Assembly (NCBI GenBank): GCA_001805445.1
Contig: MHGF01000003.1
Span: 120,429 to 184,428, forward strand
Source of the DNA: Omnitrophica WOR_2 bacterium GWF2_43_52
GTDB lineage: Bacteria; Omnitrophota; Gorgyraeia; Gygaellales; UBA12090
Length of the DNA: 64,000 nucleotides
Direction: 5' to 3'
Shown: piece after piece, positions 11,746 through 63,490 of the stretch
Layout: each line of letters starts with the position of its first letter
Position numbering within the stretch: position 1 is the first letter of the stretch
Translations under genes and position numbers: made by a program
Notes under the pieces: model-generated
What the model was told of the DNA's origin: nothing
The model's database searches: none
What the model saw: only the letters and a program-made list of their open reading frames with translations

Positions 11746-12765
11746 ATGCCTGAATTAAGAAAAGACCCCATTATCGGTAGATGGGTCATTATAGCAACTG
11801 AACGTTCAAAAAGGCCTGACGAGCTAAGCTCCAAAGCAAATGGCTCGCCTGACGGGGAGTGCCCCTTTTGTGAAACGAAGGAGGCCAAGACCCCGGGTGA
11901 AATATTTGCCATCCGTAAAAATAACCAGCCTAATACCCCGGGATGGCAGGTACGAGCCATTCCGAGTGTCGCCCCTTTTTTACGTATTGAAGGCGATTCC
12001 GACCGCCGCGGCCATGGCCTTTATGATGTCATGAACAGTATCGGCGCGCATGAAGTTATCGTAGAGACACCCCAGCATATAGATAATATCGCTGATCTGG
12101 CGACAGAGCAGATTGCAAGCGTCTTTTACGCTTACCGGGAACGGATGATGGATTTAGAAAAAGACCAGAGGTTTAAATATGTCCTTGTCTTCAAAAATCA
12201 CGGCTGGAGCGCTGGCGGCGGGAAGGAAAAGCATTCGCGCTCACAGCTCATCGCCACACCGATAACCCCGATGCGGGTAAAAGAAGAACTTATCGGCTCG
12301 CGCCAATACTACGACTATCATGAACGCTGTATCTTTTGCGATATTATACGCCAGGAAACACAACAGAAAGAACGCGTAGTCTGTGATATGGATGGTTTTG
12401 TAGCGGTAGCGCCTTTCGCGTCACGTTTTCCTTTTGAAGTCTGGATTTTACCCAAAAAACATTCCAGTGATTTTACCAAATGCGACGATCAACACCGCGT
12501 AGATTTGGCAAGAATTCTTAAGCAGGTATTGCTTAAACTGAAGAAAGCCTTAGACGATCCGCCGTATAACTATATTATCCATACCGCGCCTTTTCGCAGG
12601 GAAAAACGCGGTTACTGGAAAACCGTTAATCAGGATTATCATTGGCATATTGAAATTATGCCGCGCATTACACGGGTTGCGGGGTTTGAATGGGGAAGCG
12701 GTTTTTACATTTGCCCTATCCCCCCGGAAGACGCGGCACGATTTTTAAGGGAAACTGAAATATAA
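11746..12765 (+). CDS. GalT-like HIT-family (branch III) nucleotidyltransferase paralog 1, predicted catalytically inactive
   Basis: CPFC zinc motif, GAHEVI, and the second-half CIFCDI. The HPH nucleophile motif is replaced by KHSRSQ (His->Arg at the nucleophile position). Confidence 0.75.
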   Translation: MPELRKDPIIGRWVIIATERSKRPDELSSKANGSPDGECPFCETKEAKTPGEIFAIRKNNQPNTPGWQVRAIPSVAPFLRIEGDSDRRGHGLYDVMNSIGAHEVIVETPQHIDNIADLATEQIASVFYAYRERMMDLEKDQRFKYVLVFKNHGWSAGGGKEKHSRSQLIATPITPMRVKEELIGSRQYYDYHERCIFCDIIRQETQQKERVVCDMDGFVAVAPFASRFPFEVWILPKKHSSDFTKCDDQHRVDLARILKQVLLKLKKALDDPPYNYIIHTAPFRREKRGYWKTVNQDYHWHIEIMPRITRVAGFEWGSGFYICPIPPEDAARFLRETEI

Positions 12766-13757
12766 TGTCAGAACTAAGACGAGATCCTATCATTGAACGC
12801 TGGGTAATCGTGGATACGGACAACCCCACCAAACCGGAAGACTTTGAAAAAGAAGAAATAGTCTATCGTACAGGAGATTGCCCTTTTTGCTACGGCAACG
12901 AAGCAACCACCCCTCATGAGGTAGAGGTCATCCGCGACCCCGCCACGCACCCTAACAAGCCCGGATGGCAGGTAAGGGTAGTACCCAACAAGTTCCCTGC
13001 CCTGCAAATCGAAGGCGAAATAGAACGCCGAGGTGTCGGCTTATATGATATGTCAAACGGCATCGGCGCTCATGAGATTATCATCCAAACCCCCTACCAT
13101 CATAAGGAAATTCCTGACCTGGAAGACTACGAGGTGGAAAACGTCATCGCTATGTATTGCCGGAGGATGAACGATTTACATAAAGATACCCGTTTTAAAT
13201 ATATCCTTCTCTTTAAAAATTACGGCCCTTCCGCGGGGGCATCGCTTGAGCATCCGCATACCCAGCTTATCGCCCTGCCGATGATACCCAAAAACGTCCA
13301 GGAAGAATTAGACGGCGCTTATAAGTATTTTGAGTACCGCGAACGCTGTATTTTTTGTGATATCATCCGCCAGGAGCTGCAGGAAAAGGAGAGAATCATC
13401 TTTGAAAGTAAATACTTTATCGCCTTTTGCCCTTTTATCTCAAAATTCCCCTTTGAGGTCTGGATTATCCCCAAAAAGCATCAAGAGGCTTACTGCATGA
13501 TGAACCAGGAACAGATCCAGGAATTGGCGAAAATGCTTAAAAATACTTTACAAAGAATAAAAGATGTGCTATATAATCCAGCTTACAACTTTATCGTGCA
13601 TACCTCGCCGATAAATGTGGAGCATCGGGAAGGCTATCACTGGCACATAGAGATAATGCCTAAACTGACCCGGGTCGCCGGCTTTGAATGGGGGACAGGT
13701 TTTTACGTTGTGCCGACGCCTCCGGAAGTAGCGGCGAAGTACCTGAAGCAATCGTAA
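12765..13757 (+). CDS. GalT-like HIT-family nucleotidyltransferase (galactose-1-phosphate uridylyltransferase / ADP-glucose phosphorylase type) paralog 2, active-site intact
   Basis: CPFC, GAHEII, and an intact EHPHTQLIA motif. TAATG overlap with paralog 1. Confidence 0.8.
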   Translation: MSELRRDPIIERWVIVDTDNPTKPEDFEKEEIVYRTGDCPFCYGNEATTPHEVEVIRDPATHPNKPGWQVRVVPNKFPALQIEGEIERRGVGLYDMSNGIGAHEIIIQTPYHHKEIPDLEDYEVENVIAMYCRRMNDLHKDTRFKYILLFKNYGPSAGASLEHPHTQLIALPMIPKNVQEELDGAYKYFEYRERCIFCDIIRQELQEKERIIFESKYFIAFCPFISKFPFEVWIIPKKHQEAYCMMNQEQIQELAKMLKNTLQRIKDVLYNPAYNFIVHTSPINVEHREGYHWHIEIMPKLTRVAGFEWGTGFYVVPTPPEVAAKYLKQS

Positions 13758-39743: not shown

Positions 39744-41138
39744 ATGATGTTTACCTCAAGCGTAAGTGACAGGCGCAAGGATTATCGGATATACAACCCG
39801 GTGCCGGTAGCCTGTGAAATCGTTAACACTCAAGGCACTCCGATAAGAAAGCTAACTGTCATGGCAAAAGACATTAGTTCCAGCGGCATCTATTTTGAGT
39901 TTGGGGTAGCGTTAGCCTTGAATACGGAAATGAAAGTGGAATTCTCCCTGCCCAGAACAAACCATAACATAATTGCGACAGTAAAAATTAAACGGATAGA
40001 ATCAACCGAATTAGAAAATACTTTCGGCATTGGAGCCGCGTTTACCGAAATTCAGGATAACGACAGACATGAGATTGTCAAATTTATCGAATTCCTTAAT
40101 ATCGAAAAACTCCTTGAAATCACCGTACGAAAAGGGGCTTCAGACCTGCATCTCTTGGCCGAACAGCAGCCGGCGTTGCGCATCCATGGAGAAATTGAAC
40201 CTATAGACTTGCCTAAACTCTCTTCTGACGAAATAAGCAAAATACTTTTTAGCACCCTTTCCAGGCAGCAGATAAAACAATTTGAGCATGAGAAAGAATT
40301 AGACTACGGCTTGCAGTTTGACTCGGAAAATCGTTTCAGGGTAAATCTTCACCAGCAGCGCGGCTTCACCGAAGCAACCCTCAGGCTTATCAACACCAGG
40401 ATTCCGTCATTTGAAGAACTCCAGCTGCCGGATGCGGTGAAAGACTTGGCAAGGCTTAAGGACGGCCTCATTCTTGTTGCCGGCCCCACAGGTTCAGGAA
40501 AAACTACTACGATAGCGGCAATGGTTGATTTAATCAATAAAGAGAAAAAAGGCGTAGTCATAACCTTGGAAAGGCCGATTGAGTTCGTACATCTCAATAT
40601 AAAAAGCATCATCAAGCAACGCGAGGTAGGCATAGATACTAACTCATTTTCTACCGCCCTTAAAAGCAGCCTCAGGCAAGACCCTAACGTTATCGTCATC
40701 GGAGAAATCGAGGATATTGAAACGGTAAAAACCGCGATCATTGCCGCGGAAACCGGCCACCTTGTCATCGCCTCTTTTCACGCTACTGACTCAATGCAGG
40801 CCATTGACCGCCTAGCAGGGTTTTTCCCAACAGAAAACAGAAAACAAATACTCTCTCAATTATCACATTGCCTCCATGGGATATTAACCCAGGTACTCCT
40901 GCCCCGCAAGGATAAATTAGGCAGGGTTTTAGCCTGCGAAATTGTTTTCGCTAATGACGCGGTAAAAAGGATTATCCGCAGAGATGAACTAATCCAACTG
41001 GCTACCGCTATCCAAACAGGCGCGAACTTTAAAATGAAATCCTTAAACGATGCCGTGAAAAAATACTTAGATGAAGGCGTCATTGACGAAGAAGCTGCGC
41101 GAGCATATTTGGATGAGGCAAATAAATCTTACCGGTAA
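39744..41138 (+). CDS. pilT: PilZ-domain::PilT fusion (c-di-GMP-binding domain fused to a type IV pilus retraction ATPase)
   Basis: N-terminal RRKDYR (RxxxR) and DISSSG (DxSxxG) PilZ motifs. PilT core follows with Walker A GPTGSGKTTT and the PilT signature (AxxEhxGhNVIxGEIEDIETV). Confidence 0.8.
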   Translation: MMFTSSVSDRRKDYRIYNPVPVACEIVNTQGTPIRKLTVMAKDISSSGIYFEFGVALALNTEMKVEFSLPRTNHNIIATVKIKRIESTELENTFGIGAAFTEIQDNDRHEIVKFIEFLNIEKLLEITVRKGASDLHLLAEQQPALRIHGEIEPIDLPKLSSDEISKILFSTLSRQQIKQFEHEKELDYGLQFDSENRFRVNLHQQRGFTEATLRLINTRIPSFEELQLPDAVKDLARLKDGLILVAGPTGSGKTTTIAAMVDLINKEKKGVVITLERPIEFVHLNIKSIIKQREVGIDTNSFSTALKSSLRQDPNVIVIGEIEDIETVKTAIIAAETGHLVIASFHATDSMQAIDRLAGFFPTENRKQILSQLSHCLHGILTQVLLPRKDKLGRVLACEIVFANDAVKRIIRRDELIQLATAIQTGANFKMKSLNDAVKKYLDEGVIDEEAARAYLDEANKSYR

Positions 41139-53274: not shown

Positions 53275-53332
53275 TTTCCGGAGGCTCCGCCTCCGGTTAT
53301 TGGAGACGATCGGAGGCGGAGCCTCCGGAAAA
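53275..53332. repeat. Pair of REP-like hairpin elements in inverted orientation (TTTCCGGAGGCTCCGCCTCCGG / CGGAGGCGGAGCCTCCGGAAA) just upstream of the RAYT gene. Two more copies lie inside the gene at about 53505-53522 and 54017-54035.
   Basis: Perfect 21-nt inverted repeat read from the sequence. Each copy is itself a 7-bp-stem hairpin (CCGGAGG-CGGAG-CCTCCGG). Confidence 0.8.
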
Positions 53333-53335
53333 GAA

Positions 53336-54049
53336 ATGAGAAAAACAACCTTCGCAACAGACTGTTATTATCATATATATAACCGCGGAGTTGAAAAAAG
53401 AGTAATATTCCAAGGAAATAAGGATTATAAGCGTTTCCTTTTAGGATTAGAAGAATTTAACACCTCGCTCCCGACAGAAATTAGAAGTATCCAACTCCCC
53501 AAAACGGAGGCGGAGCCTCCGGAAAAATTAGTTGAAATTGTATGTTTTTGCTTAATGCCTAATCACTATCACTTAATAATAAAACAAACTGTCAGTAACG
53601 GTATTACTCAGTTTATGCATAAATTGGGCACGGGCTACGCAATGTATTTTAATAAAAAGTGGAAAAGAAGCGGAATATTATTTGAGGGCAATTTCAAAGC
53701 TAAGCTTATAGAAACTGACGAATATCTTCTGCATTTATCAAGATATATCCATCTTAACCCTGTAGATATGATAAATTCCCACTGGAAAGAAGATGGAATC
53801 AAAGATACTAATAGAGTTAAAAAATTTCTTTTAGGCTACTACTGGTCAAGTTATCCGATATACATTAAAAAACTTACTTCTCACCTTATTTCCACTGAAC
53901 AAATAGAGAAAATAATTACAAACGTACCTAATTACGAACACTTTACCTTAAGTTACACCTCGAAGGATATAGCTACCTTAATGCCTTTAACATTAGAAAC
54001 TCCTGTTCCCGTCCACCCGGAGGCGGAGCCTCCGGAGGATGACCTATGA
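53336..54049 (+). mobile_element. REP-associated tyrosine transposase (RAYT / IS200-like Y1 HUH transposase, COG1943 type)
   Basis: YHIYNRG motif, HUH motif MPNHYHLII, and catalytic-Tyr region LSRYIHLNPV. Flanked by and containing cognate REP-like hairpins. ATGA overlap with the downstream GH57 gene. Confidence 0.7.
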
Positions 54050-55596
54050 TCTATCTTGCTTTTGTCTGGCATATGCACCAGCCGTATTACCGTGACCTTA
54101 TCACGGGGCAATTGCACCTGCCTTGGGTGCGCCTGCACGGTATCAAGGATTACCTAGATATGGTCAAAATCCTTGAGCATTACCCGAAAATCCGCCAAAC
54201 CTTTAACCTCGTGCCTTCACTAATCGAACAAATCCAAGCCTATTGTGACGGCGCGCAGGATACCTATCAGATACTGAGCTACAAAAAAGCTTCCGACTTA
54301 ACTCACGATGAAAAACATTTTATCAAAGACCACTTTTTCTCAGCGCACCCGGATAATATTATCGCCGTAAGCCCACGGTATCATCACTTATACCTCCAGA
54401 AAGCATCTCATAAAGACTTTAGCCAGCAGGATTACCTCGATCTCCAGACCTGGTTTAACTTAGCCTGGTTTGACCCCTACTGCAAGAAAAACAACCCGGA
54501 ATTAAGAAAAATAATCGCAAAGGCAAGGCATTTTAGCGAAGAAGACAAGCTCATCGTCTTACACGAACAGATAGAAACGTTAAAAGAAATTATCCCTACC
54601 TATAAAGAATTTCAGGAAAAGGGGCAGATTGAGGTTACGACAACTCCGTATTATCATCCCATAACTCCGCTTTTGTATAATACAAATATTGCCAAAGAAG
54701 CTAACCGCTCAACAAGCCTGCCTGGAGTAAACTTCAGCTACCCTGAAGACGCGCGCGCTCAGATACAGCAGGCTGTCGCACTCTATACCAAGGCTTTTGG
54801 AAGGCCGCCGGAGGGGATGTGGCCGTCTGAGGAGGCAGTGAGCGAGCACATCATCCCATTCTTTATAGAATCGGGAATCAAATGGATCGTAGCGGATGAA
54901 GAAATACTTTTTAGATCGCTTAAGAAAAAGCGCTCTGCCGAGCTTCTCTATAAAGCGCATACTTTAAAGCGTAAAGACGGAAACCTGGCTGGCTTATTCC
55001 GTGACCGCAATCTTTCCGATTTAATCGGTTTCATGTATCATAAAATGACAGAGCATGCCGCGGTTGCTGACTTTATCGGACATCTCCATACTATCGCGAA
55101 AGCCTTTAAGGAAAAGGACTGCTTAATAACTATTGCCATGGACGGGGAAAATGCCTGGGAATACTACCGCAATGACGGATGGGATTTCCTCTCACATCTC
55201 TATAAATGCTTAAGCGAGGATAAACTTATTCAAACCGTAACAGTGAGCGAGTACCTGACAAAGTTTCCTCCAGATTCAAATATAGCGCGTATCAGCGCGG
55301 GCTCATGGATTTACGGTAATTTCAATAAGTGGATGGGCCAGGAGCAAAAGAATAAAGCCTGGGAATACCTGGCTTTAGCCCGCAAGGAATTGGAGCCCTC
55401 AGCTTTTGACTCTCAGCTTTCCGCGGAAAATTTGGAAATGGCATGGAAACAAATCTACATCTGCGAAGGCAGCGACTGGTTTTGGTGGTACGGCGACAAT
55501 AACGATGATTTCGACCGCCTCTATCGAAAACACCTCTCAAATTTTTATACCTTCCTAGGAAAAAAAATTCCAGAATATTTGACAAAACCTATATAG
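54046..55596 (+). CDS. Glycoside hydrolase family 57 protein (alpha-glucan branching/processing enzyme type)
   Basis: N-terminus MIYLAFVWHMHQPYYRD is the GH57 signature. About 516 aa, a typical length for GH57 branching enzymes. Confidence 0.8.
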   Translation: MIYLAFVWHMHQPYYRDLITGQLHLPWVRLHGIKDYLDMVKILEHYPKIRQTFNLVPSLIEQIQAYCDGAQDTYQILSYKKASDLTHDEKHFIKDHFFSAHPDNIIAVSPRYHHLYLQKASHKDFSQQDYLDLQTWFNLAWFDPYCKKNNPELRKIIAKARHFSEEDKLIVLHEQIETLKEIIPTYKEFQEKGQIEVTTTPYYHPITPLLYNTNIAKEANRSTSLPGVNFSYPEDARAQIQQAVALYTKAFGRPPEGMWPSEEAVSEHIIPFFIESGIKWIVADEEILFRSLKKKRSAELLYKAHTLKRKDGNLAGLFRDRNLSDLIGFMYHKMTEHAAVADFIGHLHTIAKAFKEKDCLITIAMDGENAWEYYRNDGWDFLSHLYKCLSEDKLIQTVTVSEYLTKFPPDSNIARISAGSWIYGNFNKWMGQEQKNKAWEYLALARKELEPSAFDSQLSAENLEMAWKQIYICEGSDWFWWYGDNNDDFDRLYRKHLSNFYTFLGKKIPEYLTKPI

Positions 55597-55678
55597 TGTG
55601 TATAATATAAAAATATACACAATATTTTGCGTCTGAACACAAGAAAAACATTGACAAAAGAAAGTTTTCTGCTATAAA

Positions 55679-56263
55679 ATGGAAAAGAAGGAAGTATACG
55701 ATTATTTAGCAAAAATATATTTGGATAAGCAGCCTGCCGCGAAGATAGTAAGGAAGGCGCCTGAACCAAGTAAAAAATATATAACGTTCATTCTCATAGC
55801 GCTCGGTATCGCGATCGTCAGCGCGGGAGCCTTTCTAAAATACCAGATACGCTTTTTTAAGCCTAAGGCATTTGGCCTTTATGTGGCAACCGGCAGCGAG
55901 CTCATCAAACTCAAGTACAACTTTAACAACTCAAGCACTAAAAAAGAAGGCTATAGTGTTACCTTATCGGACATCAACGCGCAGGATTACCAACACCTAC
56001 AATTTCAGGCACGTTCGCTTACCGACGACCCGGGAATAAAGATACGAGTAGAGGTTGAGAATAATCTAAAAGAGAATGCCTTTAGCTACATTGATGGAGT
56101 AAGCGGCGCGTGGAAGGAATTCACCCTGAAGTTAAGCGATTTTAAGGGATTAACGCGCTGGGATAACGTAAACAAAATATCGTTTATCATTGAGGAATGG
56201 AACGTTGTGGGAAAGGAAAATAGTGTTTTCATAGACGAGATAAGGCTAATCAAAAAAAAGTAG
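55679..56263 (+). CDS. Hypothetical type-II membrane protein with an extracytoplasmic beta-sandwich (CBM-like) domain
   Basis: Cytoplasmic N-terminus, one TM helix (ITFILIALGIAIVSAGAFL), then a domain ending ...WNVVGKENSVFIDEIRLIKKK (CBM-like pattern). The family assignment is tentative. Confidence 0.4.
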   Translation: MEKKEVYDYLAKIYLDKQPAAKIVRKAPEPSKKYITFILIALGIAIVSAGAFLKYQIRFFKPKAFGLYVATGSELIKLKYNFNNSSTKKEGYSVTLSDINAQDYQHLQFQARSLTDDPGIKIRVEVENNLKENAFSYIDGVSGAWKEFTLKLSDFKGLTRWDNVNKISFIIEEWNVVGKENSVFIDEIRLIKKK

Positions 56264-56276
56264 GAGGGAAAACTAT

Positions 56277-57365
56277 ATGAGAATAATCTCAATAGCCAAT
56301 CAAAAAGGAGGCTGCGGGAAAACTACCACAGCCGTAAACTTAGGCGCGGCATTAGCCAGTAACAACCGTAAAGTGCTTTTGATTGACTTTGACCCTCAAG
56401 CCCATGCAACCGTCGGGCTCAACGTCCAGGCAAAGATAAGCATCTACAATTGCCTTTCTAAACTCTCCCCGGAAAAAGCAACGTTACAGGATATCATCGT
56501 CAATATTGATAATAACTTTGATTTAGCCCCCTCAAACATTATCCTCACCACTCTGGAGCAGGAACTGGCCAATGAAATAGGCAGGGAAAACCACCTCCAG
56601 GATACGCTTTCCGCCTTTAAAAACGACTACGACTATATTCTTATAGATTGCCCGCCCAATTTAGGCATCCTAACGGTAAATGCCATATGCGCGTCGAATG
56701 AAGTTATCATCCCTGTTGAGCCAAGCCGCTTCTCAGTAGAGGGCCTAAGCCGGCTAATAGATATCATTGACCTTATCCAGAACCGCCTTAACCATACCGT
56801 AAGCCACAATGTCCTGGTAACCATGTTTGATTCCCGATTGAAATACGCCTTTAGAATATTAGCAGAGCTCAGAAGCAAATTCAGGGAATGTATGTTTTCT
56901 ACCATAATCCACGTCAATGTCAAACTCAAAGAATCACAGAGTTCAGGTTCTTCGGTCATGGGTTTTGACAAATATAGCAGAGGCGCTAAAGATTACTTCA
57001 GCTTAGCAAAAGAGATGCTGAGCATGGGAAAACAAGTGGAAAAGGGGACAGAGTTTGTGGTTTCCAAAAAAATGCGAGAGCTCGTTAGTGCCCATCTGCC
57101 GAAATTAAATAAAGTCACACTAAAACTTGACTTTCCTGGTGCCAAAGAGGTTTATATCGCCGGAGATTTCAACAACTGGTCAAAAGACCCGAGTTCCGCG
57201 ATGATTGGCACTAATGGCAGCTGGAACAAACGCCTTAGCCTTAAACCCGGCCAATACCACTACCGTTTCGTTGTTGACGGGAATTGGATAACTGATCCCG
57301 GGAATCCCTTGCAAGAGAAAAACCCTTACGGGGAATATGACTCTCTTTTAAAAATAGGTGCCTAA
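56277..57365 (+). CDS. ParA/Soj-family deviant Walker-A ATPase fused to a C-terminal CBM48 / AMPK-beta-type glycogen-binding domain
   Basis: N-terminus IANQKGGCGKTTTAVNL (KGGxxGKT) plus a full ParA core (about 250 aa). C-terminal roughly 100 aa read VTLKLDFPGAKEVYIAGDFNNWSKD...YHYRFVVDGNWITDPGNP, closely matching the AMPK-beta1 GBD including both carbohydrate-contact Trp positions. Strong RBS AGGAGGG. Confidence 0.8.
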   Translation: MRIISIANQKGGCGKTTTAVNLGAALASNNRKVLLIDFDPQAHATVGLNVQAKISIYNCLSKLSPEKATLQDIIVNIDNNFDLAPSNIILTTLEQELANEIGRENHLQDTLSAFKNDYDYILIDCPPNLGILTVNAICASNEVIIPVEPSRFSVEGLSRLIDIIDLIQNRLNHTVSHNVLVTMFDSRLKYAFRILAELRSKFRECMFSTIIHVNVKLKESQSSGSSVMGFDKYSRGAKDYFSLAKEMLSMGKQVEKGTEFVVSKKMRELVSAHLPKLNKVTLKLDFPGAKEVYIAGDFNNWSKDPSSAMIGTNGSWNKRLSLKPGQYHYRFVVDGNWITDPGNPLQEKNPYGEYDSLLKIGA

Positions 57366-57393: not shown

Positions 57394-58065
57394 ATGCACA
57401 CCTTTGAGGCCATTAAGAACAGGCGTTCAATAAGAGAATTCACCCGTCAAGAAATAACCAAAGAAAACTTAGAGAAACTCATTGAAGCCGCGCGCCTGGC
57501 GCCTACTGCTCGTAATGAACAGCCATGGGAATTTGTCGTTATTACCAATCAGGCAGTAAAACAAAAGATATCCCAGATAACTGACCCTAATGGCCTCTTT
57601 ATCAGCAGCGCCGCGGCAGCTATCGTGGTTTTCTGCCTTAACAGCAAATATTATCTTGAGGATGGCTCTGCCGCGACCGAAAACATCCTTATCCAAGCCT
57701 CTGACTTAGGAATAGGCTCCTGCTGGGTAGCTGGTGATAAAAAACCTTACTGTGACAAGGTAAAACAGCTGCTTAAGGTTACTGATAAATACAAGCTCAT
57801 CAGCATCATTGCCTTAGGATACCCCCAGCAAAGCCCTGGCCCTATTGAAAAACGCGCGATAAAAGACGTAGTGCATTGGGAAGCATTTTTAACAAAAACG
57901 TTGTATCAGAAAGAGTTTAAGGGAAACAATGGCAAATCTAAAAAAAGCAAGCCTAAAGAAAAAAATAGTAAAAAAACCGGTGAAAGCTGTCAGAAAACCA
58001 AAAACGCCAGCCCCAAAACTATTAAAAAACAAAAAAGCAGCAAAGGCTTCTTCACCCAAGGCTAA
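57394..58065 (+). CDS. Nitroreductase-family flavoprotein; 3' boundary uncertain because the ORF reads through into an A-rich, Lys-coding region
   Basis: MHTFEAIKNRRSIREF...LAPTARNEQPWEFVVI motifs. The nitroreductase fold appears complete by about residue 165; the remaining roughly 55 aa are K/S-rich and overlap the next gene in another frame. Confidence 0.65.
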   Translation: MHTFEAIKNRRSIREFTRQEITKENLEKLIEAARLAPTARNEQPWEFVVITNQAVKQKISQITDPNGLFISSAAAAIVVFCLNSKYYLEDGSAATENILIQASDLGIGSCWVAGDKKPYCDKVKQLLKVTDKYKLISIIALGYPQQSPGPIEKRAIKDVVHWEAFLTKTLYQKEFKGNNGKSKKSKPKEKNSKKTGESCQKTKNASPKTIKKQKSSKGFFTQG

Positions 58066-58318
58066 AAAAGAAACCAGTATTATTATCGGGAAGATTGTCC
58101 ATTATTTTCCCCATGTCAAAGCAGGCGTCGTCAAGCTTAAACATCCCATAACCGTAGGCGATACAGTCAGAATCAAAGGGCACACTACTGATTTCACCTA
58201 TGCCATAAGTTCCATACAAATAGACCGCGCCCCACTACAAAAAGCAAAAAAAGGCCAAGAAATAGGCCTCTTAGTCACATCCAGAGTAAGAAGAGGCGAC
58301 AAAATCTACAAACTCTAA
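57929..58318 (+). CDS. Small basic protein: histone-H1-like Lys/Ala/Pro-rich N-terminus plus an EF-Tu-domain-2-like beta-barrel C-terminus
   Basis: AAGGGA RBS 5 nt upstream of the ATG. N-terminal KKPVKAVRKPKTPAPKLLKNKKAAKASSPKAKK. C-terminal IIGKIVHYFPHVKAGVVKLKHPITVGDTVRIKGHTT... resembles EF-Tu domain 2 (GTVVTGRVERG...VGDEVEIVG). Confidence 0.45.
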   Translation: MANLKKASLKKKIVKKPVKAVRKPKTPAPKLLKNKKAAKASSPKAKKETSIIIGKIVHYFPHVKAGVVKLKHPITVGDTVRIKGHTTDFTYAISSIQIDRAPLQKAKKGQEIGLLVTSRVRRGDKIYKL

Positions 58319-59044: not shown

Positions 59045-59263
59045 TTGGCAGGAAACGGTAGGATGACAATTACAGACGTAGCTGAGCGGTTAGGCGTTAC
59101 CCAAAAGACAATTGTCCGCTGGGAAAAAGCAGGTAAGGTAGGCCTGGCAAAGCGTGACTGGCGCGGCTGGCGAGTCTATGATAAAAATGATTTCAAAAAA
59201 CTAAAAACTTTTAAGGAAATGATCGTGTATTACGGGGAGGACAAAAATGATACAAAAACTTAA
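59045..59263 (+). CDS. MerR/excisionase-family HTH DNA-binding protein
   Basis: HTH MTITDVAERLGVTQKTIVRWEKAGKV. TTG start chosen 6 nt after an AAGGAGG RBS (the alternative is the ATG at 59063). 3' end overlaps the wza start. Confidence 0.6.
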   Translation: MAGNGRMTITDVAERLGVTQKTIVRWEKAGKVGLAKRDWRGWRVYDKNDFKKLKTFKEMIVYYGEDKNDTKT

Positions 59264-60083
59264 GTATATAGGTATACTGCTGGTTTTCGCGGCTACTTCG
59301 GCCCAGGCGTTTGCCGCAGCTGAGCCTTCTGAGGAGCTCAAGATTATTGAAACGCCGAATACAATAGAAATCCACACTTCGCAAATAGCAGCTCCTCTCG
59401 ATAAGAGCCAGGACACTACCGCTTCAGAAGCTACCACCAAAACCATCGTGTCAGAGAGCTATAAATTTGACCCCCTCAAGTATACCCTCGGCCCTGATGA
59501 TGTCATTGAGATCGCGGTCCTGCGCCATCCGGAGTTTAGCGGCGTCTACCCCATAGACCAGGAGGGAAAGATTCAATATAAATTTGTCGGAGATATAGTG
59601 GTAACCGGCTTAACAAAGTCACAATTAGAACAAAGAATAACGGATATTATTTCCAGCTTTGTTATCACTCCTGAGGTAAACGTCACTATTAACGAATACC
59701 GGAGTAAAGTTATTTACATCCTGGGGGAAGTCGGAACCCCGGGGAAATACTACATACGTTCTGAGGCGATTCCCGTGCGCGAGGCGGTATTCCAGGCAGG
59801 GCTTCCTACTGGATCAGCGGCTATGCGCAAATGCCAGATTATTACACCCTCAAAAGACGGAAATGTCAAGATACGAAAGGTTGACATCTATTCATTGCTC
59901 TACGGCGGTAATTTAAAGAAAAACATCGAAATGAAACCCGGAGATGTGCTCTATGTCCCATCTACCGTAATGGCAAAACTCATTAGAGTCATTAACCCCG
60001 TTGCCTCTACCGTGGGCGTCGCTTCAAGCGGCCCAAGCAGCGCATCAGGCGGCAAGGCCGCGCTTGAAACTTTAGCCAAATAA
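59247..60083 (+). CDS. Polysaccharide export outer-membrane protein (Wza/EpsE/GumB family, Poly_export plus SLBB)
   Basis: Signal peptide; motif YTLGPDDVIEIAVLRHPEFSGVYPIDQEGKIQYKFVGDIVVTGLT. Confidence 0.8.
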   Translation: MIQKLKYIGILLVFAATSAQAFAAAEPSEELKIIETPNTIEIHTSQIAAPLDKSQDTTASEATTKTIVSESYKFDPLKYTLGPDDVIEIAVLRHPEFSGVYPIDQEGKIQYKFVGDIVVTGLTKSQLEQRITDIISSFVITPEVNVTINEYRSKVIYILGEVGTPGKYYIRSEAIPVREAVFQAGLPTGSAAMRKCQIITPSKDGNVKIRKVDIYSLLYGGNLKKNIEMKPGDVLYVPSTVMAKLIRVINPVASTVGVASSGPSSASGGKAALETLAK

Positions 60084-60100
60084 TACGAGGAGACTAAATA

Positions 60101-61414
60101 ATGGAAGACCAGGAATTCAGCAAATACCGTAACCCCATAGAATACCTTAAAGTATTTTTTCGCCGCAAATGGCTTTTTATCGCGCCCGCCTTTATCGGCA
60201 CAACCATAGGAGCGGCAGCGTGTTTCCTGCTTCCGCCCACATGGGAATCTTCAACGATAATCCTTGTTGAGGAAGAAAAAATAATTAATCCGCTCTTTCA
60301 AAACCTGGCGGTATCAACCAGCGCCGCGCAGAGAATGCAAAGTATCAGAGAAAGCATCCTCAGCTGGAACAGCTTGGTTGAGCTGGCTAAAAAGTTAGAC
60401 TTGGCAAAAAACGCGCAGTCGCAAGCAGAATATGAGCGGCTGATTATGAACCTCAAGAAAGACATCTCCGTCCAGATGCGCCAGCACAATATTATCAGGC
60501 TTGCCTACGAAGGGAAAACTCCCAAGGAAACCCAGTTAGTGGCAAAGACGCTTACCGATATCCTGGTCGAAAAAAACATGCGGGCGCAAACCAAGGAAAC
60601 TGATGTGGCAATAGCCTTTATCACAGAACAGCTTGCCATCTACAAAAGAAAGATAAAAGAATCGGAAATCGCTAACCTGCAGGACCAATTAAAAAACCTC
60701 CTGGAAGATTCTACCGAACAGCATCCTATAGTCAAAGAAATAAGGCAGAAAATAGATACGGAACTAAAAGAGTTAGACTCCGGGGAATATAAAATTACCG
60801 GAACAGAGCAAGCCATTTCCAGCCCCGCGAGAGAAGCCTTAAAAAAGGAGCTGGATAAACTCGTCCAAGACAAGACATCCCAGTCACTCTCAGGCGGCGT
60901 GCGGCCGACAGCCGCGGAAAGCGAGAACGACGCTAATAAATCCATCTATAAGCTCCTCTTAATGGACAGGGTAGATACATCATTAGCGAGGGATATCAAC
61001 GTTAACGTCAGTATCTACAATATGCTTCTTGAGAAATTAGAGACCGCGAAAATCACCCAGCGCCTGGAAACCTCTAAAGAAGGAACGCGCTATACTATCC
61101 TTGACCCGCCCCGTCTTCCTTTAAAACCGATAAAGCCTAAAAAGGTATTGGTCGTCCTGCTGGGGTTTTTCTTCGGTGCCGCCTCCGGTACAGGGCTTGT
61201 CTTTGGCAAGGAATTTATGGACCAATCGTTCCTGGACATCGAAGATACACGGCATACACTGTCATTACCAGTATTAGGCGCGATTTCGCGCATCACGACG
61301 CAAGAAGCAATTGATAAAGAGAAAAACAGGAGGAAAGTCGCTATTGCCGCAAGCATAGTTTTAGCTTCGGCCTCAGTAATCGGCGCTGCCCTGTTTTCAC
61401 TCTTAAAAAAATAA
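60101..61414 (+). CDS. Polysaccharide chain-length determinant / co-polymerase (Wzz/PCP family, GumC/EpsF-like)
   Basis: N-terminal TM plus the Wzz motif, a long periplasmic coiled-coil, and a C-terminal TM helix. Confidence 0.75.
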   Translation: MEDQEFSKYRNPIEYLKVFFRRKWLFIAPAFIGTTIGAAACFLLPPTWESSTIILVEEEKIINPLFQNLAVSTSAAQRMQSIRESILSWNSLVELAKKLDLAKNAQSQAEYERLIMNLKKDISVQMRQHNIIRLAYEGKTPKETQLVAKTLTDILVEKNMRAQTKETDVAIAFITEQLAIYKRKIKESEIANLQDQLKNLLEDSTEQHPIVKEIRQKIDTELKELDSGEYKITGTEQAISSPAREALKKELDKLVQDKTSQSLSGGVRPTAAESENDANKSIYKLLLMDRVDTSLARDINVNVSIYNMLLEKLETAKITQRLETSKEGTRYTILDPPRLPLKPIKPKKVLVVLLGFFFGAASGTGLVFGKEFMDQSFLDIEDTRHTLSLPVLGAISRITTQEAIDKEKNRRKVAIAASIVLASASVIGAALFSLLKK

Positions 61415-61418
61415 GACT

Positions 61419-62288
61419 ATGTACGAAAATTTCTTCGGATTTAGCGAAAAACCGTTCAACACCACCCCTGACTCAAGATTCTTTTTCCCAAGCACCAAGC
61501 ATTTGGAGGCGCTTAACAGCTTAGTCTATGCCATTGACCAGAGGAAAGGCTTTGTCGTCATTACCGGTGAAATCGGGGCAGGCAAGACCACCGTCTGCAG
61601 AACACTCTTAAATAAGCTTAACGGCAGCACCAAAGTAGCCCTCATCACCAATACCCACATCAGCGCGAAAGAACTCCTTTCGGAGATTCTTGACGAATTC
61701 GAGATTGAACATAAGGGAGGAACCAAACAAAGGCTCCTCTCGCATCTGAACAAATTCCTGATTCAGGAGTTAGCCACAGACACCAATGTCGTTTTGATTA
61801 TTGATGAAGCGCAAAACCTTACCCCTACGGTTTTAGAGGAGGTACGGATGCTTTCTAACCTTGAGACCGAAAAAGAAAAGCTCATCCAGATTATCCTTCT
61901 CGGACAGCCCCAGCTCAAAGCAAAGCTGGAACATTCAAGATTGGAACAATTCAAACAAAGGATTGCCGTTTACTATCACTTAGCTACCCTCAACCATGAA
62001 GAAACGAAAGAATACATCCATCACAGGCTAAAAATCGCCAGCGTCAACGCGCATGTCAAAATTTTTAGCCCTGAGGCAATAGACTTAATTTACGCCTATT
62101 CAAAAGGCGTGCCCCGAATTATCAATTTAACCTGCGACAGCGCGCTTTTAAGCGGCTATATTATGGATACGAAGTGCATTGAAGAAACAACAATCAAGGA
62201 AGTAATCAAAGAGAGGCAATTAGAAAGCTCCGTTACCGATCTTGCGTGTACTGAAAATCAAGACGCCTCTTATTGTGTTAAGCATTAA
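61419..62288 (+). CDS. ExeA/GspA-like AAA ATPase of EPS loci (PEP-CTERM-locus 'secretion ATPase' type)
   Basis: FGFSEKPFNTTPDSRFFFPSTKHLEAL...VVITGEIGAGKTTVCR (Walker A), then DEAQNL. Confidence 0.75.
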   Translation: MYENFFGFSEKPFNTTPDSRFFFPSTKHLEALNSLVYAIDQRKGFVVITGEIGAGKTTVCRTLLNKLNGSTKVALITNTHISAKELLSEILDEFEIEHKGGTKQRLLSHLNKFLIQELATDTNVVLIIDEAQNLTPTVLEEVRMLSNLETEKEKLIQIILLGQPQLKAKLEHSRLEQFKQRIAVYYHLATLNHEETKEYIHHRLKIASVNAHVKIFSPEAIDLIYAYSKGVPRIINLTCDSALLSGYIMDTKCIEETTIKEVIKERQLESSVTDLACTENQDASYCVKH

Positions 62289-62303
62289 TCAAAAAGGAGC
62301 ACT

Positions 62304-63092
62304 ATGGGTAAATTAACCGATGCCTTAAAAAAAGCAGCTGAAGAACGCATTTCAAGAATAGAAAAGCTTGATAGCCAAGACGAAGTCAAATACCAGTTCA
62401 TTGCCAAAAAAACGGTAGAGTCAAAGATTGACCCCCGCATTGTCTCATTCTACGACTCCCACGCTCCGGTATCCGAACAATACCGCAGCCTACGCACCAA
62501 TCTTCAAGCCTTAAATACCTCAAAACCGGCGAAAGTCATCGCGATCACCAGTTCTATTAACGGCGAAGGGAAAACCATCTCCGCGATCAACCTGGCTATC
62601 ACAATGGCAAAGGACCTTAATCAAAAAAGTATCCTCCTTATTGACGCTGACCTGCGCCGTTCGCGTATCACCAAATACCTTGGCATAACCCCTGAATTAG
62701 GGCTTTCAGATATCATCACCAATGGCTCAAACATTGACGACGCGCTCCTGAATATAGGCATCGAGAATCTCACGGTGCTTTCCGCGGGAAAGCACCCCAC
62801 TAATCCCGCGGAACTTTTAGGCTCACAGAAATTCAAGAACCTCATGAACCAGGTAAAGGCCAAATACGACTACATCATCCTTGACACCCCGCCGATTATC
62901 CCGGTAACCGATGCCGGATTAATAGGCGCGCAAGCTGACGGCGTGATAATGGTTGTCCAGGCATCCCGCACGCAACGGGGAGTTGTCAAACACAGTGAAG
63001 GGCTCCTAAAACAAGCCCAAGCCAAAATTCTCGGCTACATACTCACGAATGTCCAGTACCATATACCAGGGTATATTTATAGATACTTATAA
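62304..63092 (+). CDS. Bacterial tyrosine (BY) kinase / chain-length-determinant ATPase (CpsD/EpsG type)
   Basis: Walker A' ITSSINGEGKTISAINLA, Walker A...DADLRRS, Walker B YDYIILDTPP. C-terminal Tyr-rich tail YHIPGYIYRYL. Confidence 0.8.
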   Translation: MGKLTDALKKAAEERISRIEKLDSQDEVKYQFIAKKTVESKIDPRIVSFYDSHAPVSEQYRSLRTNLQALNTSKPAKVIAITSSINGEGKTISAINLAITMAKDLNQKSILLIDADLRRSRITKYLGITPELGLSDIITNGSNIDDALLNIGIENLTVLSAGKHPTNPAELLGSQKFKNLMNQVKAKYDYIILDTPPIIPVTDAGLIGAQADGVIMVVQASRTQRGVVKHSEGLLKQAQAKILGYILTNVQYHIPGYIYRYL

Positions 63093-63136
63093 AAGTCTAT
63101 GGACTATAGTCTATAGCCGATAGTAGAGAAAAGAAT

Positions 63137-63490
63137 ATGTTTAAGTTTGAAAATTTAAAAATCTGGAAAGAATCAGTTGCGTTTGCGGGTGAAATTTACA
63201 CCTTATCTAAAAAATTCCCCAGGGAAGAGCTGTTTGGGCTAACGAGTCAATTAACAAGGGCAGCTGTATCTATCAGCTTAAACATCGCCGAAGGCGAAGG
63301 CAGAAACTCTGACGCCGAATTATCGCGATTTACGCAAATAGCAATAGGTTCTTTAAATGAGGTCGTAACAGTTTTATTCATAAGTTTAGAGCAAAAATAT
63401 ATTGCTCAAAAAGATTTTGATTTATCCTACAAGAGATGCGAACAAATCTCTAAAATGTTACACGCTTTTAGAAATTATTTAAAACATTAA
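63137..63490 (+). CDS. Four-helix-bundle protein (TIGR02436 type; 23S rRNA intervening-sequence protein family)
   Basis: MFKFENLKIWKESVAF...SQLTRAAVSISLNIAEGEGR signature. Flanked on both sides by inverted copies of the ATAGACTATCGACC repeat. Confidence 0.75.
   Translation: MFKFENLKIWKESVAFAGEIYTLSKKFPREELFGLTSQLTRAAVSISLNIAEGEGRNSDAELSRFTQIAIGSLNEVVTVLFISLEQKYIAQKDFDLSYKRCEQISKMLHAFRNYLKH

Follow-up and report, generated by a model that had tools for sequence, protein, structure and literature searches.

Two kinds of described system are among those closest to the gene pair reported here. One is the chromosomal ParA/Soj group (type Ib; 1WCV, 6IUB, 8RAY), whose partner ParB is a CTPase with a helix-turn-helix fold; the other comprises McdA/McdB, PpfA/TlpT, ParC/ParP and PomXYZ, in which a ParA ATPase is accompanied by an adjacent, fast-evolving partner with a conserved terminal peptide and acts on a presumed non-DNA cargo. 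Here we describe a ParA ATPase fused to a carbohydrate-binding module of family 48 (CBM48), together with the membrane protein encoded directly upstream of it, in a 64,000-nucleotide stretch of DNA from Omnitrophica WOR_2 bacterium GWF2_43_52 (contig MHGF01000003.1, positions 120,429 to 184,428; hereafter the window). With chromosomal ParA/Soj the fusion shares the fold, the catalytic motifs, the signature Lys and about 40-47% identity over 250 aa, but it differs in carrying a linker and a CBM48 domain, in the replacement of the Walker A Val by Cys, in having no adjacent parB, and in its partner being a membrane protein. The second group is resembled in the adjacent, co-inherited partner; in McdAB-type systems, however, cargo binding is left to the adaptor and the nucleoid is all that the ATPase binds, while here the putative cargo domain sits on the ATPase itself, the partner is membrane-anchored, and the match to McdA reaches only 60 bits. 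By analogy, the pair would work most like the McdAB-type orphan ParA systems.

The observation itself, a ParA ATPase and an AMPK1_CBM domain in one open reading frame (ORF), is far beyond chance. We tentatively propose, with a confidence that falls somewhat short of even, that the two genes form a module in which ParA, as an ATP-dependent dimer, attaches to alpha-glucan, and the N-terminal peptide of the partner recruits or regulates this dimer, so that glycogen is organised by the pair.

All three co-directional ORFs that an earlier note on this DNA had described, for a glycoside hydrolase of family 57 (GH57), a membrane protein and the fusion, were found on the forward strand. The fusion ORF (56277-57365) encodes 362 aa, ParA::CBM48, and is divided as follows.

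56277..57026, forward strand: Soj-type ParA ATPase domain, aa 1-250 (AAA_31; ParA/Soj matches in the PDB)
57027..57110, forward strand: flexible, partly helical linker, aa 251-278 (low pLDDT; M266, E268 and P275 conserved)
57111..57365, forward strand: CBM48/AMPK-beta-type domain, aa 279-362, plus stop codon (AMPK1_CBM, 1Z0N, pLDDT ~90)

Judged by its sequence, the ATPase is a genuine ParA/Soj superfamily protein (SIMIBI class). The Pfam model AAA_31 covers aa 1-175 at 1.2e-57 (195 bits, gathering cutoff (GA) 27), and CbiA matches the fusion protein at 3.2e-18 (66 bits, GA 25.4). In phmmer searches of the PDB, the ATPase half gave 184 bits to the ParA 8RAY, 144 to Thermus Soj (1WCV) and 135 to Helicobacter pylori Soj; the same 250 aa gave only the 60 bits to McdA noted above, and ~50 bits to MinD. 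The deviant Walker A, KGGCGKT, lies at 56304-56324 (NQKGGCGKTT, aa 8-17), and K10, G11, G12, G14, K15, T16 and T17 are unchanged across 30 aligned homologues; the Cys that replaces the Val of Soj is present in all of them. D37 and D39 of the Walker A' switch (DFDPQ, where B. subtilis Soj has D40) and the Walker B residue D124 (IDCPP) are equally unchanged, and this region aligns with the D-to-A trap position of 2BEK and 8RAY. R187, within an FDSRL motif, shows no variation either; we take it to be the equivalent of B. subtilis Soj R189, an Arg that binds non-specific DNA (the Soj numbering being anchored on D40). K216 aligns with what is presumably K230 of H. pylori Soj. The intact deviant Walker A and the complete ParA core that the earlier note had read in this protein are thus borne out, with all ATPase motifs invariant.

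In the AlphaFold2 (AF2) model, built with 30 homologues, a confident beta-sandwich at aa 279-360 (pLDDT ~90) is joined by a low-confidence linker (pLDDT 44-69) with helices at 240-255 and 258-273; the linker varies in length and contains a 40-aa insertion in one homologue. AMPK1_CBM (PF16561) matches aa 288-358 at 4.1e-14, well above its curated cutoff (53.0 bits, GA 26.8), and CBM_48 (PF02922) stays just under threshold (18.4 vs 22.4). When the last 109 aa alone were searched with phmmer against the PDB, they matched the glycogen-binding domains of AMPK beta1 and beta2 at 2e-11 to 6e-10, the best match being the AMPK beta1 CBM 1Z0N (2.3e-11), with weaker matches to pullulanase CBM48s, Sip2, SEX4 and LSF1. 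On this sequence evidence the C-terminal domain is a bona fide member of AMPK1_CBM/CBM48, as the earlier note had held, and the pair of carbohydrate-contacting Trp residues that it had pointed to is present as W301 and W337, the stacking Trp of the window protein.

The sugar contacts of AMPK beta1 are reportedly W100, W133, K126, L146, T148 and N150 (work of Polekhina and colleagues, 2005). We surveyed the equivalent positions in 79 unique fusion proteins, translated from their loci and 42-71% identical to the window protein. The equivalents of W100 and of W133 are each Trp in 79/79, that of N150 is Asp or Asn in 79/79, and that of L146 is Phe or Tyr in 78/79; the K126 equivalent is Arg or Lys in 56/79, and the T148 position is variable. 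This retention of contact positions over 79 unique fusions indicates that the carbohydrate-binding face is under purifying selection. In comparison with the domain of AMPK beta and Snf1 Gal83-Sip2 (1Z0M, 1Z0N, 2F15), both Trp and the Asn150 equivalent are kept and the Leu146 equivalent is aromatic; it differs in being bacterial and fused to a P-loop ATPase instead of a kinase scaffold, with Arg, Lys or Gln at K126 and no fixed residue at T148. A search of the representative set with the CBM48 domain only gave as its best 150 matches exclusively multi-repeat CBM48-like proteins, whose summed scores outrank single-domain matches. Among these 150, many bacterial proteins are built of 3-18 tandem AMPK1_CBM-like repeats, and a large group of ~480 aa has four such repeats with 36-47% identity to the window CBM48; the AMPK1_CBM-like subtype is therefore widely deployed beyond ParA fusions.

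A survey of ParA::CBM48 architectures placed the fusion family in at least 589 species-representative genomes (one genome per species). The best 120 database relatives (59-91% identity) all combine ParA with AMPK1_CBM and, where they are named, are called 'AAA family ATPase', 'ParA family protein' or 'chromosome partitioning protein'. Among the matches listed, the hosts are nearly all Omnitrophota metagenome-assembled genomes (MAGs), some of them mislabelled Planctomycetales, with a small Thermodesulfobacteriota / 'delta proteobacterium' group at 42-43% identity. No description of a ParA with AMPK1_CBM or CBM48, or of glycogen positioning by one, was found in full-text searches of the literature, in agreement with the earlier note, which had held that a granule-partitioning system of this kind would be undescribed; two major Omnitrophota genomics papers do not mention ParA, ParB, partition or segregation, and a third does not discuss partition or segregation. 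As the sequences are public under generic names, what is new is that the module, with its conserved partner, is recognised as such.

The partner gene ends 13 nt before the start of the fusion gene, and its product can be divided into three parts.

55679..56263, forward strand: partner gene, predicted to encode a 194-aa bitopic inner-membrane protein (N-in, C-out)
55679..55729, forward strand: predicted cytoplasmic N-terminal amphipathic helix (MEKKEVYDYLAKIYLDK), then a Lys-rich stretch (conservation, AF2)
55772..55855, forward strand: predicted transmembrane (TM) helix, aa 32-59 (AF2; hydropathy)
55874..56251, forward strand: predicted periplasmic CBM11-like beta-sandwich, aa 66-191 (pLDDT ~90; Foldseek)

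The partner had no match in Pfam and NCBIfam (E-values up to 0.1) or in PADLOC. Its AF2 model (pLDDT 80.5) consists of a helix at aa 3-16, a disordered Lys-rich stretch, the TM helix and the beta-sandwich, and the sandwich was matched by Foldseek in the PDB to the CBM11 6R3M (5.9e-8, TM-scores 0.49/0.53, 17% identity), with further matches to CBM30 and CBM4 (CBM4-2) at up to 1e-4, and to CIA30. The modelled C-terminal domain is CBM11-like in fold, not by sequence family, which fits the membrane-anchored protein with a CBM-like beta-sandwich that had been described earlier. One hydrophobic segment is present in 74/74 partner homologues (best 19-mer, mean Kyte-Doolittle value 2.33), and the mean count of Lys and Arg is 6.1 in its N-terminal flank against 2.5 in its C-terminal flank, with N exceeding C in 68/74. 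From this charge bias around a single hydrophobic segment, we infer that the N-terminus is cytoplasmic and that the CBM11-like domain is periplasmic.

In most loci the partner is merely 25-35% identical to that of the window. Its first 16 residues are the best conserved, with a mean frequency of the commonest residue of 0.77, compared to 0.52 in the sandwich and 0.29 in the TM helix. The recurring N-terminal forms are MDKKDIYEHLAKIYLD, MEKxEVYDYLAKIYLD and MTRDEIYDHLAQVYLG, and E2, K3, Y7, L10, A11, Y14, L15 and D16 are invariant in an alignment of the closer homologues. A conserved, Lys-containing terminal peptide on a fast-evolving neighbour is a hallmark of the ATPase partners ParB, McdB, MinE and PomX, and the N-terminal helix is a candidate for a ParA-docking or ATPase-activating peptide.

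Linkage was counted over 84 loci (20 kb), binned by the identity of ParA to the window protein. The partner is found directly upstream of the fusion in 49/49 loci at 54% identity or more, in 18/18 at 47-54%, and in 5/10 below 47%. It thus adjoins the fusion in 67/67 loci at 47% or more, mostly with a gap of <50 bp, and in none of the partner-bearing loci is an ORF inserted between the two. In the bin below 47%, tblastn detected the partner once (L059, 46% ParA identity); those of L070, L073, L074 and L083 were found by inspecting upstream ORFs of 236-246 aa, whose products are built in the same way and begin with a motif related to that of the partner. In the divergent Omnitrophota locus L081 (9335-12045), the place of the membrane partner upstream is taken by a type IV pilin-like gene (N_methyl), and a 305-aa, degenerate-looking MinD/FlhG-type P-loop protein without a canonical Walker A is encoded downstream.

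In three homologues of ~60% identity the gene order is PPDK, sigma70, APRT, PHP, AF_1845-like, Alginate_exp porin, GH57, a protein of ~190 aa and ParA::CBM48. In most deeper loci, the gene next after that of the porin is the one for the membrane protein. GH57 lies within 3 kb upstream of the fusion in 30/37 loci at 54% identity or more, in 2/17 at 47-54% and in 1/9 below 47%. With the partner present in 67/67 loci and GH57 being clade-specific, the conserved unit is a two-gene pair, not a three-gene block. Of the gene block in the earlier note, the co-directional neighbours stand but GH57 is not constant, and the view that the ATPase needs no adaptor and that the membrane protein is a bystander is not supported, this protein being an invariant partner. 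An obligatory operon of GH57, TM protein and ParA was considered and rejected: GH57 is a clade-specific neighbour, and the stretch between it and the partner gene contains promoter-like sites. Between porin and GH57 the window has a gene for an IS200-like Y1 transposase, similar to REP-associated tyrosine transposases (53300-54049, forward strand), and L002 has a 23S_rRNA_IVP four-helix-bundle gene there. Insertions seem to be tolerated at this intergenic site, in contrast to the junction between partner and parA.

Two promoter-like sites precede the partner gene in the window.

55579..55606, forward strand: promoter-like site TTGACA-16 nt-TATAAT (12/12), 72 nt upstream of the partner gene and overlapping the 3' end of GH57
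55651-55678, forward strand: second promoter-like site, abutting the partner ATG

Promoter calls here are matches to the sigma-70 consensus only. Sites of at least 11/12 within 150 bp upstream of the partner occur in 43% of 72 loci, compared to 1.6% of control stretches of 150 bp taken at random. Some 30 loci (e.g. L001, L002, L007, L009, L014, L023) share an element TTGACA-17 nt-TATAAA that ends 7-13 nt before the partner ATG, with no Shine-Dalgarno sequence visible, which suggests leaderless or near-leaderless partner transcripts in this clade. Its counterpart in the window is the site that abuts the ATG and so cannot serve this start codon; leaderless transcription is for this reason not claimed for the window. 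The parA ATG is preceded at 8 nt by a strong GGAGG Shine-Dalgarno sequence. From this arrangement, partner and ParA::CBM48 probably form a transcription unit of their own.

Taken together, the sequence features of the pair suggest a role in the placement of glycogen. In the mechanism that we propose, ATP binding would dimerise the ParA core, as expected from the intact deviant Walker A, Walker A' and Walker B, and the dimer would then display two CBM48 domains, which, given their sugar-contact residues, could bind cytoplasmic alpha-glucan or glycogen bivalently and in an ATP-dependent manner. Probably the dimer would also bind nucleoid DNA non-specifically through the Soj arginine R187. The N-terminal peptide of the partner would dock on the ATPase, by analogy with ParB, McdB, MinE and PomX, and docking might either bring the ATPase with its bound glycogen to the membrane or stimulate ATP hydrolysis and release. 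The net outcome would be that glycogen is placed, tethered or inherited under the control of ATP in cells of very small size; the cells of Omnitrophota are reported to be ultra-small (PMC10066038). In one study, GlgC and GlgA were encoded by most of the Omnitrophota MAGs, so that a ligand is available in the cytoplasm, though some genera reportedly have no glycogen synthesis (PMC8542988).

Functional analogies to such an arrangement exist: PhaM/PhaF tether polyhydroxybutyrate (PHB) granules to the nucleoid, plant PTST2 (a CBM48 protein) and its membrane-associated partner MFP1 determine the sites of starch granule initiation, and mammalian Stbd1 is a membrane-anchored CBM20 tether of glycogen. 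Each links a polymer-binding module to a nucleoid or membrane element that governs where granules lie or how they are inherited; none is known to contain a ParA ATPase, and there is no homology beyond the CBM.

Several points weigh against a role in organising glycogen. The CBM48 fold and the conserved Trp are not proof that glycogen is the ligand: the K126 equivalent is Gln in 23/79 fusions and T148 is variable, bacteria use AMPK1_CBM-like domains very widely within other architectures (9,406 cluster representatives), and some occur in proteins without a known glycogen role, for example with a weak match to a type IX secretion system (T9SS) plug model. Glycogen enzymes are not consistently linked to the pair, with GH57 absent from most deeper loci and no parB, glgA, glgC or glgP in the rest of the 64-kb window, which holds housekeeping and envelope-glycan genes; the Thermodesulfobacteriota loci have no parB, membrane partner or glycogen genes (glgA, glgC, glgP) nearby. 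The wider flanks (PPDK, sigma70, APRT, PHP, porin) are syntenic too, so that some of the linkage is inherited gene order. The ATPase is unusually near chromosomal Soj, with ~47% identity to 8RAY as aligned by eye. Finally, with the putative cargo receptor on the ATPase and the presumed activator on the membrane, a classical diffusion-ratchet, whose activator is carried by the cargo, is not directly applicable, and what we call positioning may really be static tethering; we consider static or cyclic tethering to be as likely as active transport.

The similarity of the ATPase to Soj is the starting point for a rival explanation, in which the fusion is the chromosomal ParA (Soj) of Omnitrophota with an accessory domain and an unlinked ParB/parS, and serves segregation or the control of DnaA. 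CBM48 would then at most modulate it, for example if Soj were held on glycogen and segregation or replication were thereby tied to the carbon supply. The scores fit this: 184 bits to 8RAY and 131-144 to Thermus, Helicobacter and Mycobacterium Soj equal the similarity among Sojs of different phyla, and are far above those to McdA and MinD. The presumed nsDNA-binding Arg is invariant, the region is a strongly syntenic, housekeeping one in a family of at least 589 species, and the databases use the name 'chromosome partitioning protein'. On the other hand, chromosomal parA normally has parB directly behind it, and no match to the ParB box II motif [GAS]ERR[x]RA was found in any frame of the window and the 84 loci (1.26 Mb, covering 10 kb around each fusion), by a regular expression run without a known-ParB control. 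Pfam scans of the neighbouring genes gave no ParBc, and no second Soj-like gene lies within 10 kb of the fusion. The consistent linkage to parB that the earlier note had named as the alternative to a glucan role was therefore not seen. The NCBIfam equivalog ParA_partition (NF041546) is also not reached (114.8 bits vs a cutoff of 180), and with this sub-cutoff score and no parB nearby the fusion fails the tests for a ParABS partition locus. Instead, the gene that always adjoins it encodes a dedicated partner of another kind, whose terminal peptide is conserved. The Cys that is peculiar to the Walker A of this family sets it apart as a lineage of its own, and the Thermodesulfobacteriota contexts are variable, rich in mobile elements and defence genes, and accessory-like. 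We thus regard the chromosomal-partition explanation as distinctly improbable; were it true, the protein would be a glycogen-sensing regulator of segregation or replication, which is at least as interesting.

In the Thermodesulfobacteriota clade, all 120 listed database matches (80-100% identity) are fused, with PF16561 present. The fusion sits here on contigs of 1.3-3 Mb, in variable surroundings rich in mobile elements or defence genes, and its contexts are unrelated: Mla/MCP genes, Abi/HEPN/toxin-antitoxin genes, and transposases. A 145-aa cytoplasmic protein is always encoded directly downstream (L072, L075, L077, L085, L086, L087), for example as follows.

L075, 11285-11722: 145-aa neighbour of the Thermodesulfobacteriota fusion

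This neighbour has no match in Pfam, NCBIfam or PADLOC. By eye it is FN3-like, and its tail, EEVRDAYLGGS, is faintly like the N-terminal motif of the Omnitrophota partner, DEIYDHLAQVYLGK. It may stand in for the membrane partner as a soluble protein that carries the docking peptide at its other end; the likeness of the tail motif is a lead only, as the clade is too narrow (79-91% identity) for conservation to be judged. The Thermodesulfobacteriota version looks like an accessory two-gene module that was possibly transferred, and its variable contexts and accessory look argue against a strictly chromosomal-partition role in this group. A defence system was considered for the surroundings of L087, with its Abi, HEPN and toxin-antitoxin genes, and rejected, as PADLOC gave P-loop-level matches only (18-20 bits).

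The genes around the pair raise a second rival explanation, that of an envelope-complex organiser like BcsQ, TadZ/CpaE, FlhG or VirC1, whose cargo would be the membrane partner and its periplasmic contacts; the CBM48-like domain would then be a protein-interaction module, or bind a non-storage cytoplasmic glycan intermediate. The invariant partner is, after all, a membrane protein with a periplasmic, carbohydrate-binding-like fold, 41/45 loci with a ParA identity of at least 47% have a gene for an Alginate_exp-type outer-membrane porin upstream, and an exopolysaccharide (EPS) export cluster (Poly_export, Wzz/GNVR and a protein resembling bacterial tyrosine kinases (BY-kinases)) follows 2 kb downstream in the window and several other loci. 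L081, with its pilin gene upstream and degenerate MinD-like gene downstream, also fits. AMPK1_CBM-like domains occur in many non-glycogen contexts, and the CBM of AMPK itself makes protein contacts too. The likeness extends to the split BY-kinases (CapA/CapB, Wzd/Wze) and BcsQ, where a membrane adaptor peptide, a ParA/MinD-superfamily protein and polysaccharide export nearby are found together; unlike these, the fusion has a Soj-type ATPase and no C-terminal Tyr cluster. Its scores are far under the NCBIfam cutoffs for both (TIGR01007 eps_fam, 43.4 vs 108; TIGR03018, 44.2 vs 231; TIGR03371 BcsQ, 72.4 vs 158), and an identity as BY-kinase, BY-kinase adaptor or BcsQ was rejected. Against an envelope organiser, the exact alpha-glucan contacts of AMPK beta are kept over 79 fusions, which would be unneeded for pure protein binding, the porin and EPS genes share in the regional synteny and disappear from the deepest clade, where the partner is still present, and the Thermodesulfobacteriota version has neither membrane partner nor porin or EPS genes. 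We consider this explanation unlikely, though less so than a chromosomal Soj.

The third gene of the block in the window bears on the alpha-glucan theme more directly.

54046..55596, forward strand: GH57 alpha-glucan hydrolase, amylopullulanase-like (Pfam; alignment to AaApu)

Glyco_hydro_57 (PF03065) matches it at 4e-68 (230 bits). The nearest solved relative is the amylopullulanase AaApu of Aquifex aeolicus (8ZYI, 9JLQ), with 292 bits over nearly the full length, the window protein being ~40 aa longer, while the GH57 branching enzymes 1UFA, 5WU7 and 3N8T give ~26 bits. E262 (nucleophile) and D366 (acid/base) align with E256 and D352 of AaApu, an enzyme that hydrolyses glycogen, pullulan and starch (PMC12106739). 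The NCBIfam branching equivalogs are missed by a wide margin (branch_enz_Thcocales, 39.7 vs 1000; branchenz_Thermus, 24.4 vs 920). The scores to AaApu and to the branching enzymes mark the protein as degradative, not branching; with the catalytic pair also aligned to AaApu, a branching enzyme was rejected, and the label 'branching-type' given to it earlier is best replaced. No signal peptide was found, and the protein is probably an active cytoplasmic alpha-glucan hydrolase, as judged from sequence. In the distant locus L076 a GH57 gene lies 1.7 kb upstream of the fusion in another arrangement, which gives weak independent support for a functional association. As a whole, GH57 is an accessory, clade-specific neighbour that fits the alpha-glucan theme but stands outside the core.

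An active-looking, cytoplasmic GH57 that adjoins the pair throughout much of one clade (30/37 loci), and is less than 2 kb away in L076, could also be read as pointing to a metabolic scaffold, in which the glycogen-bound ATPase recruits or gates glycogen-metabolising enzymes such as GH57 at the granule surface in dependence on ATP/ADP and has no role in placement or inheritance. The ATP/ADP switch would report the energy state, and in AMPK-beta the same domain couples an enzyme to glycogen. But GH57 is missing from most deeper loci, promoter-like sites are enriched between GH57 and the partner, and a scaffold of this kind leaves no role for the invariant membrane partner; no ParA or MinD protein is known as a metabolic gate. 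We consider this explanation very unlikely.

Returning to the proposed glycogen-organising module, a bolder version would be that Omnitrophota, together with one lineage of Thermodesulfobacteriota to which the fusion would have come by transfer, have the first ATP-driven system dedicated to a storage granule made of polysaccharide, with the granule coupled to the nucleoid (through R187) and to the membrane (through the partner peptide). We hold this to be somewhat unlikely. In such a system, the periplasmic CBM-like domain of the partner could make the placement of granules responsive to a glycan cue from the envelope or from outside the cell. Positioning or tethering factors have already been described for carboxysomes, PHB granules, polyphosphate granules and chemoreceptor arrays, whereas the mechanism by which glycogen, the most widespread bacterial carbon store, is placed and inherited is essentially unknown. 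The pair is a concrete candidate for this function and offers a hypothesis for a gene pair of at least 589 species-representative genomes, nearly all from Omnitrophota, a phylum about which little is understood and whose members are ultra-small and possibly dependent on hosts. Should the glycogen reading be true, this would be a ParA system with reversed logic—cargo receptor on the motor, activator on a fixed landmark—and the ParA/MinD design space would extend to cargo recognition on the ATPase itself. As the components are small, soluble or peptide-sized, in vitro work is feasible even though Omnitrophota are uncultured.

Downstream of the fusion, one further gene could take part in such a module.

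57929..58318, forward strand: candidate third component, 129 aa, Lys/Ala-rich histone-H1-like tail and EF-Tu-domain-2-like beta-barrel (GTP_EFTU_D2, sub-threshold)

Homologues are found in L001 (10365-10790), L006, L033, L050, L059 and L062; they have a variable Lys/Arg/Pro-rich tail of 50-170 aa and a conserved C-terminal barrel of ~80 aa with the motif GxITHYFxK...GDxIxIKG...MQIE...KGQLVGLKV...GDxVYK. No PADLOC match was found for this Lys-rich protein. By clade, it is encoded within 2.5 kb downstream of the fusion in 38/40, 15/17 and 1/11 loci, a linkage no tighter than the general regional synteny. H1-like tails in PhaF and PhaM tether PHB granules to DNA, and by analogy the protein could be a nucleoid-binding third component.

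In 38/70 loci a small membrane protein of 105-108 aa resembling MamF/MmsF is encoded ~9 bp downstream of the fusion.

L001, 11098-11424, and L002, 11085-11402: MamF/MmsF-like protein, absent from the window

The window carries a nitroreductase gene in this slot (57394-58065, forward strand), whose ORF has 223 aa, while that of L002 has 164 aa. The last 55 aa, which are rich in Lys, run in a different frame across the start of the following gene (57929), and the extension is probably an ORF-calling artefact over an A-rich stretch full of Lys codons.

The polysaccharide-export cluster 2 kb downstream of the fusion (59247-63490, forward strand) recurs with unchanged gene order in L002 (13636-17971): Poly_export/SLBB, Wzz/GNVR, an ExeA-like AAA_22 ATPase, a 262-aa BY-kinase-like protein of ParA/MinD fold, and a small protein. 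The 262-aa protein is distinct from the Soj-type fusion; the small protein at the end resembles a 23S_rRNA_IVP/Avd-like four-helix bundle and is annotated by Pfam only in L002. Further upstream in the window, two tandem GalT-like genes (GalP_UDP_transf and DUF4921/DUF4931; 11746-13757, forward strand) precede GAPDH, PGK and TIM; the GalT-like family includes ADP-glucose phosphorylases, and the two genes may bear on alpha-glucan and nucleotide-sugar metabolism. The upstream housekeeping stretch also encodes PilZ fused to a secretion ATPase (T2SSE) of the type II secretion/type IV pilus kind (39744-41138, forward strand), by its sequence a probable c-di-GMP-controlled pilus or secretion ATPase.

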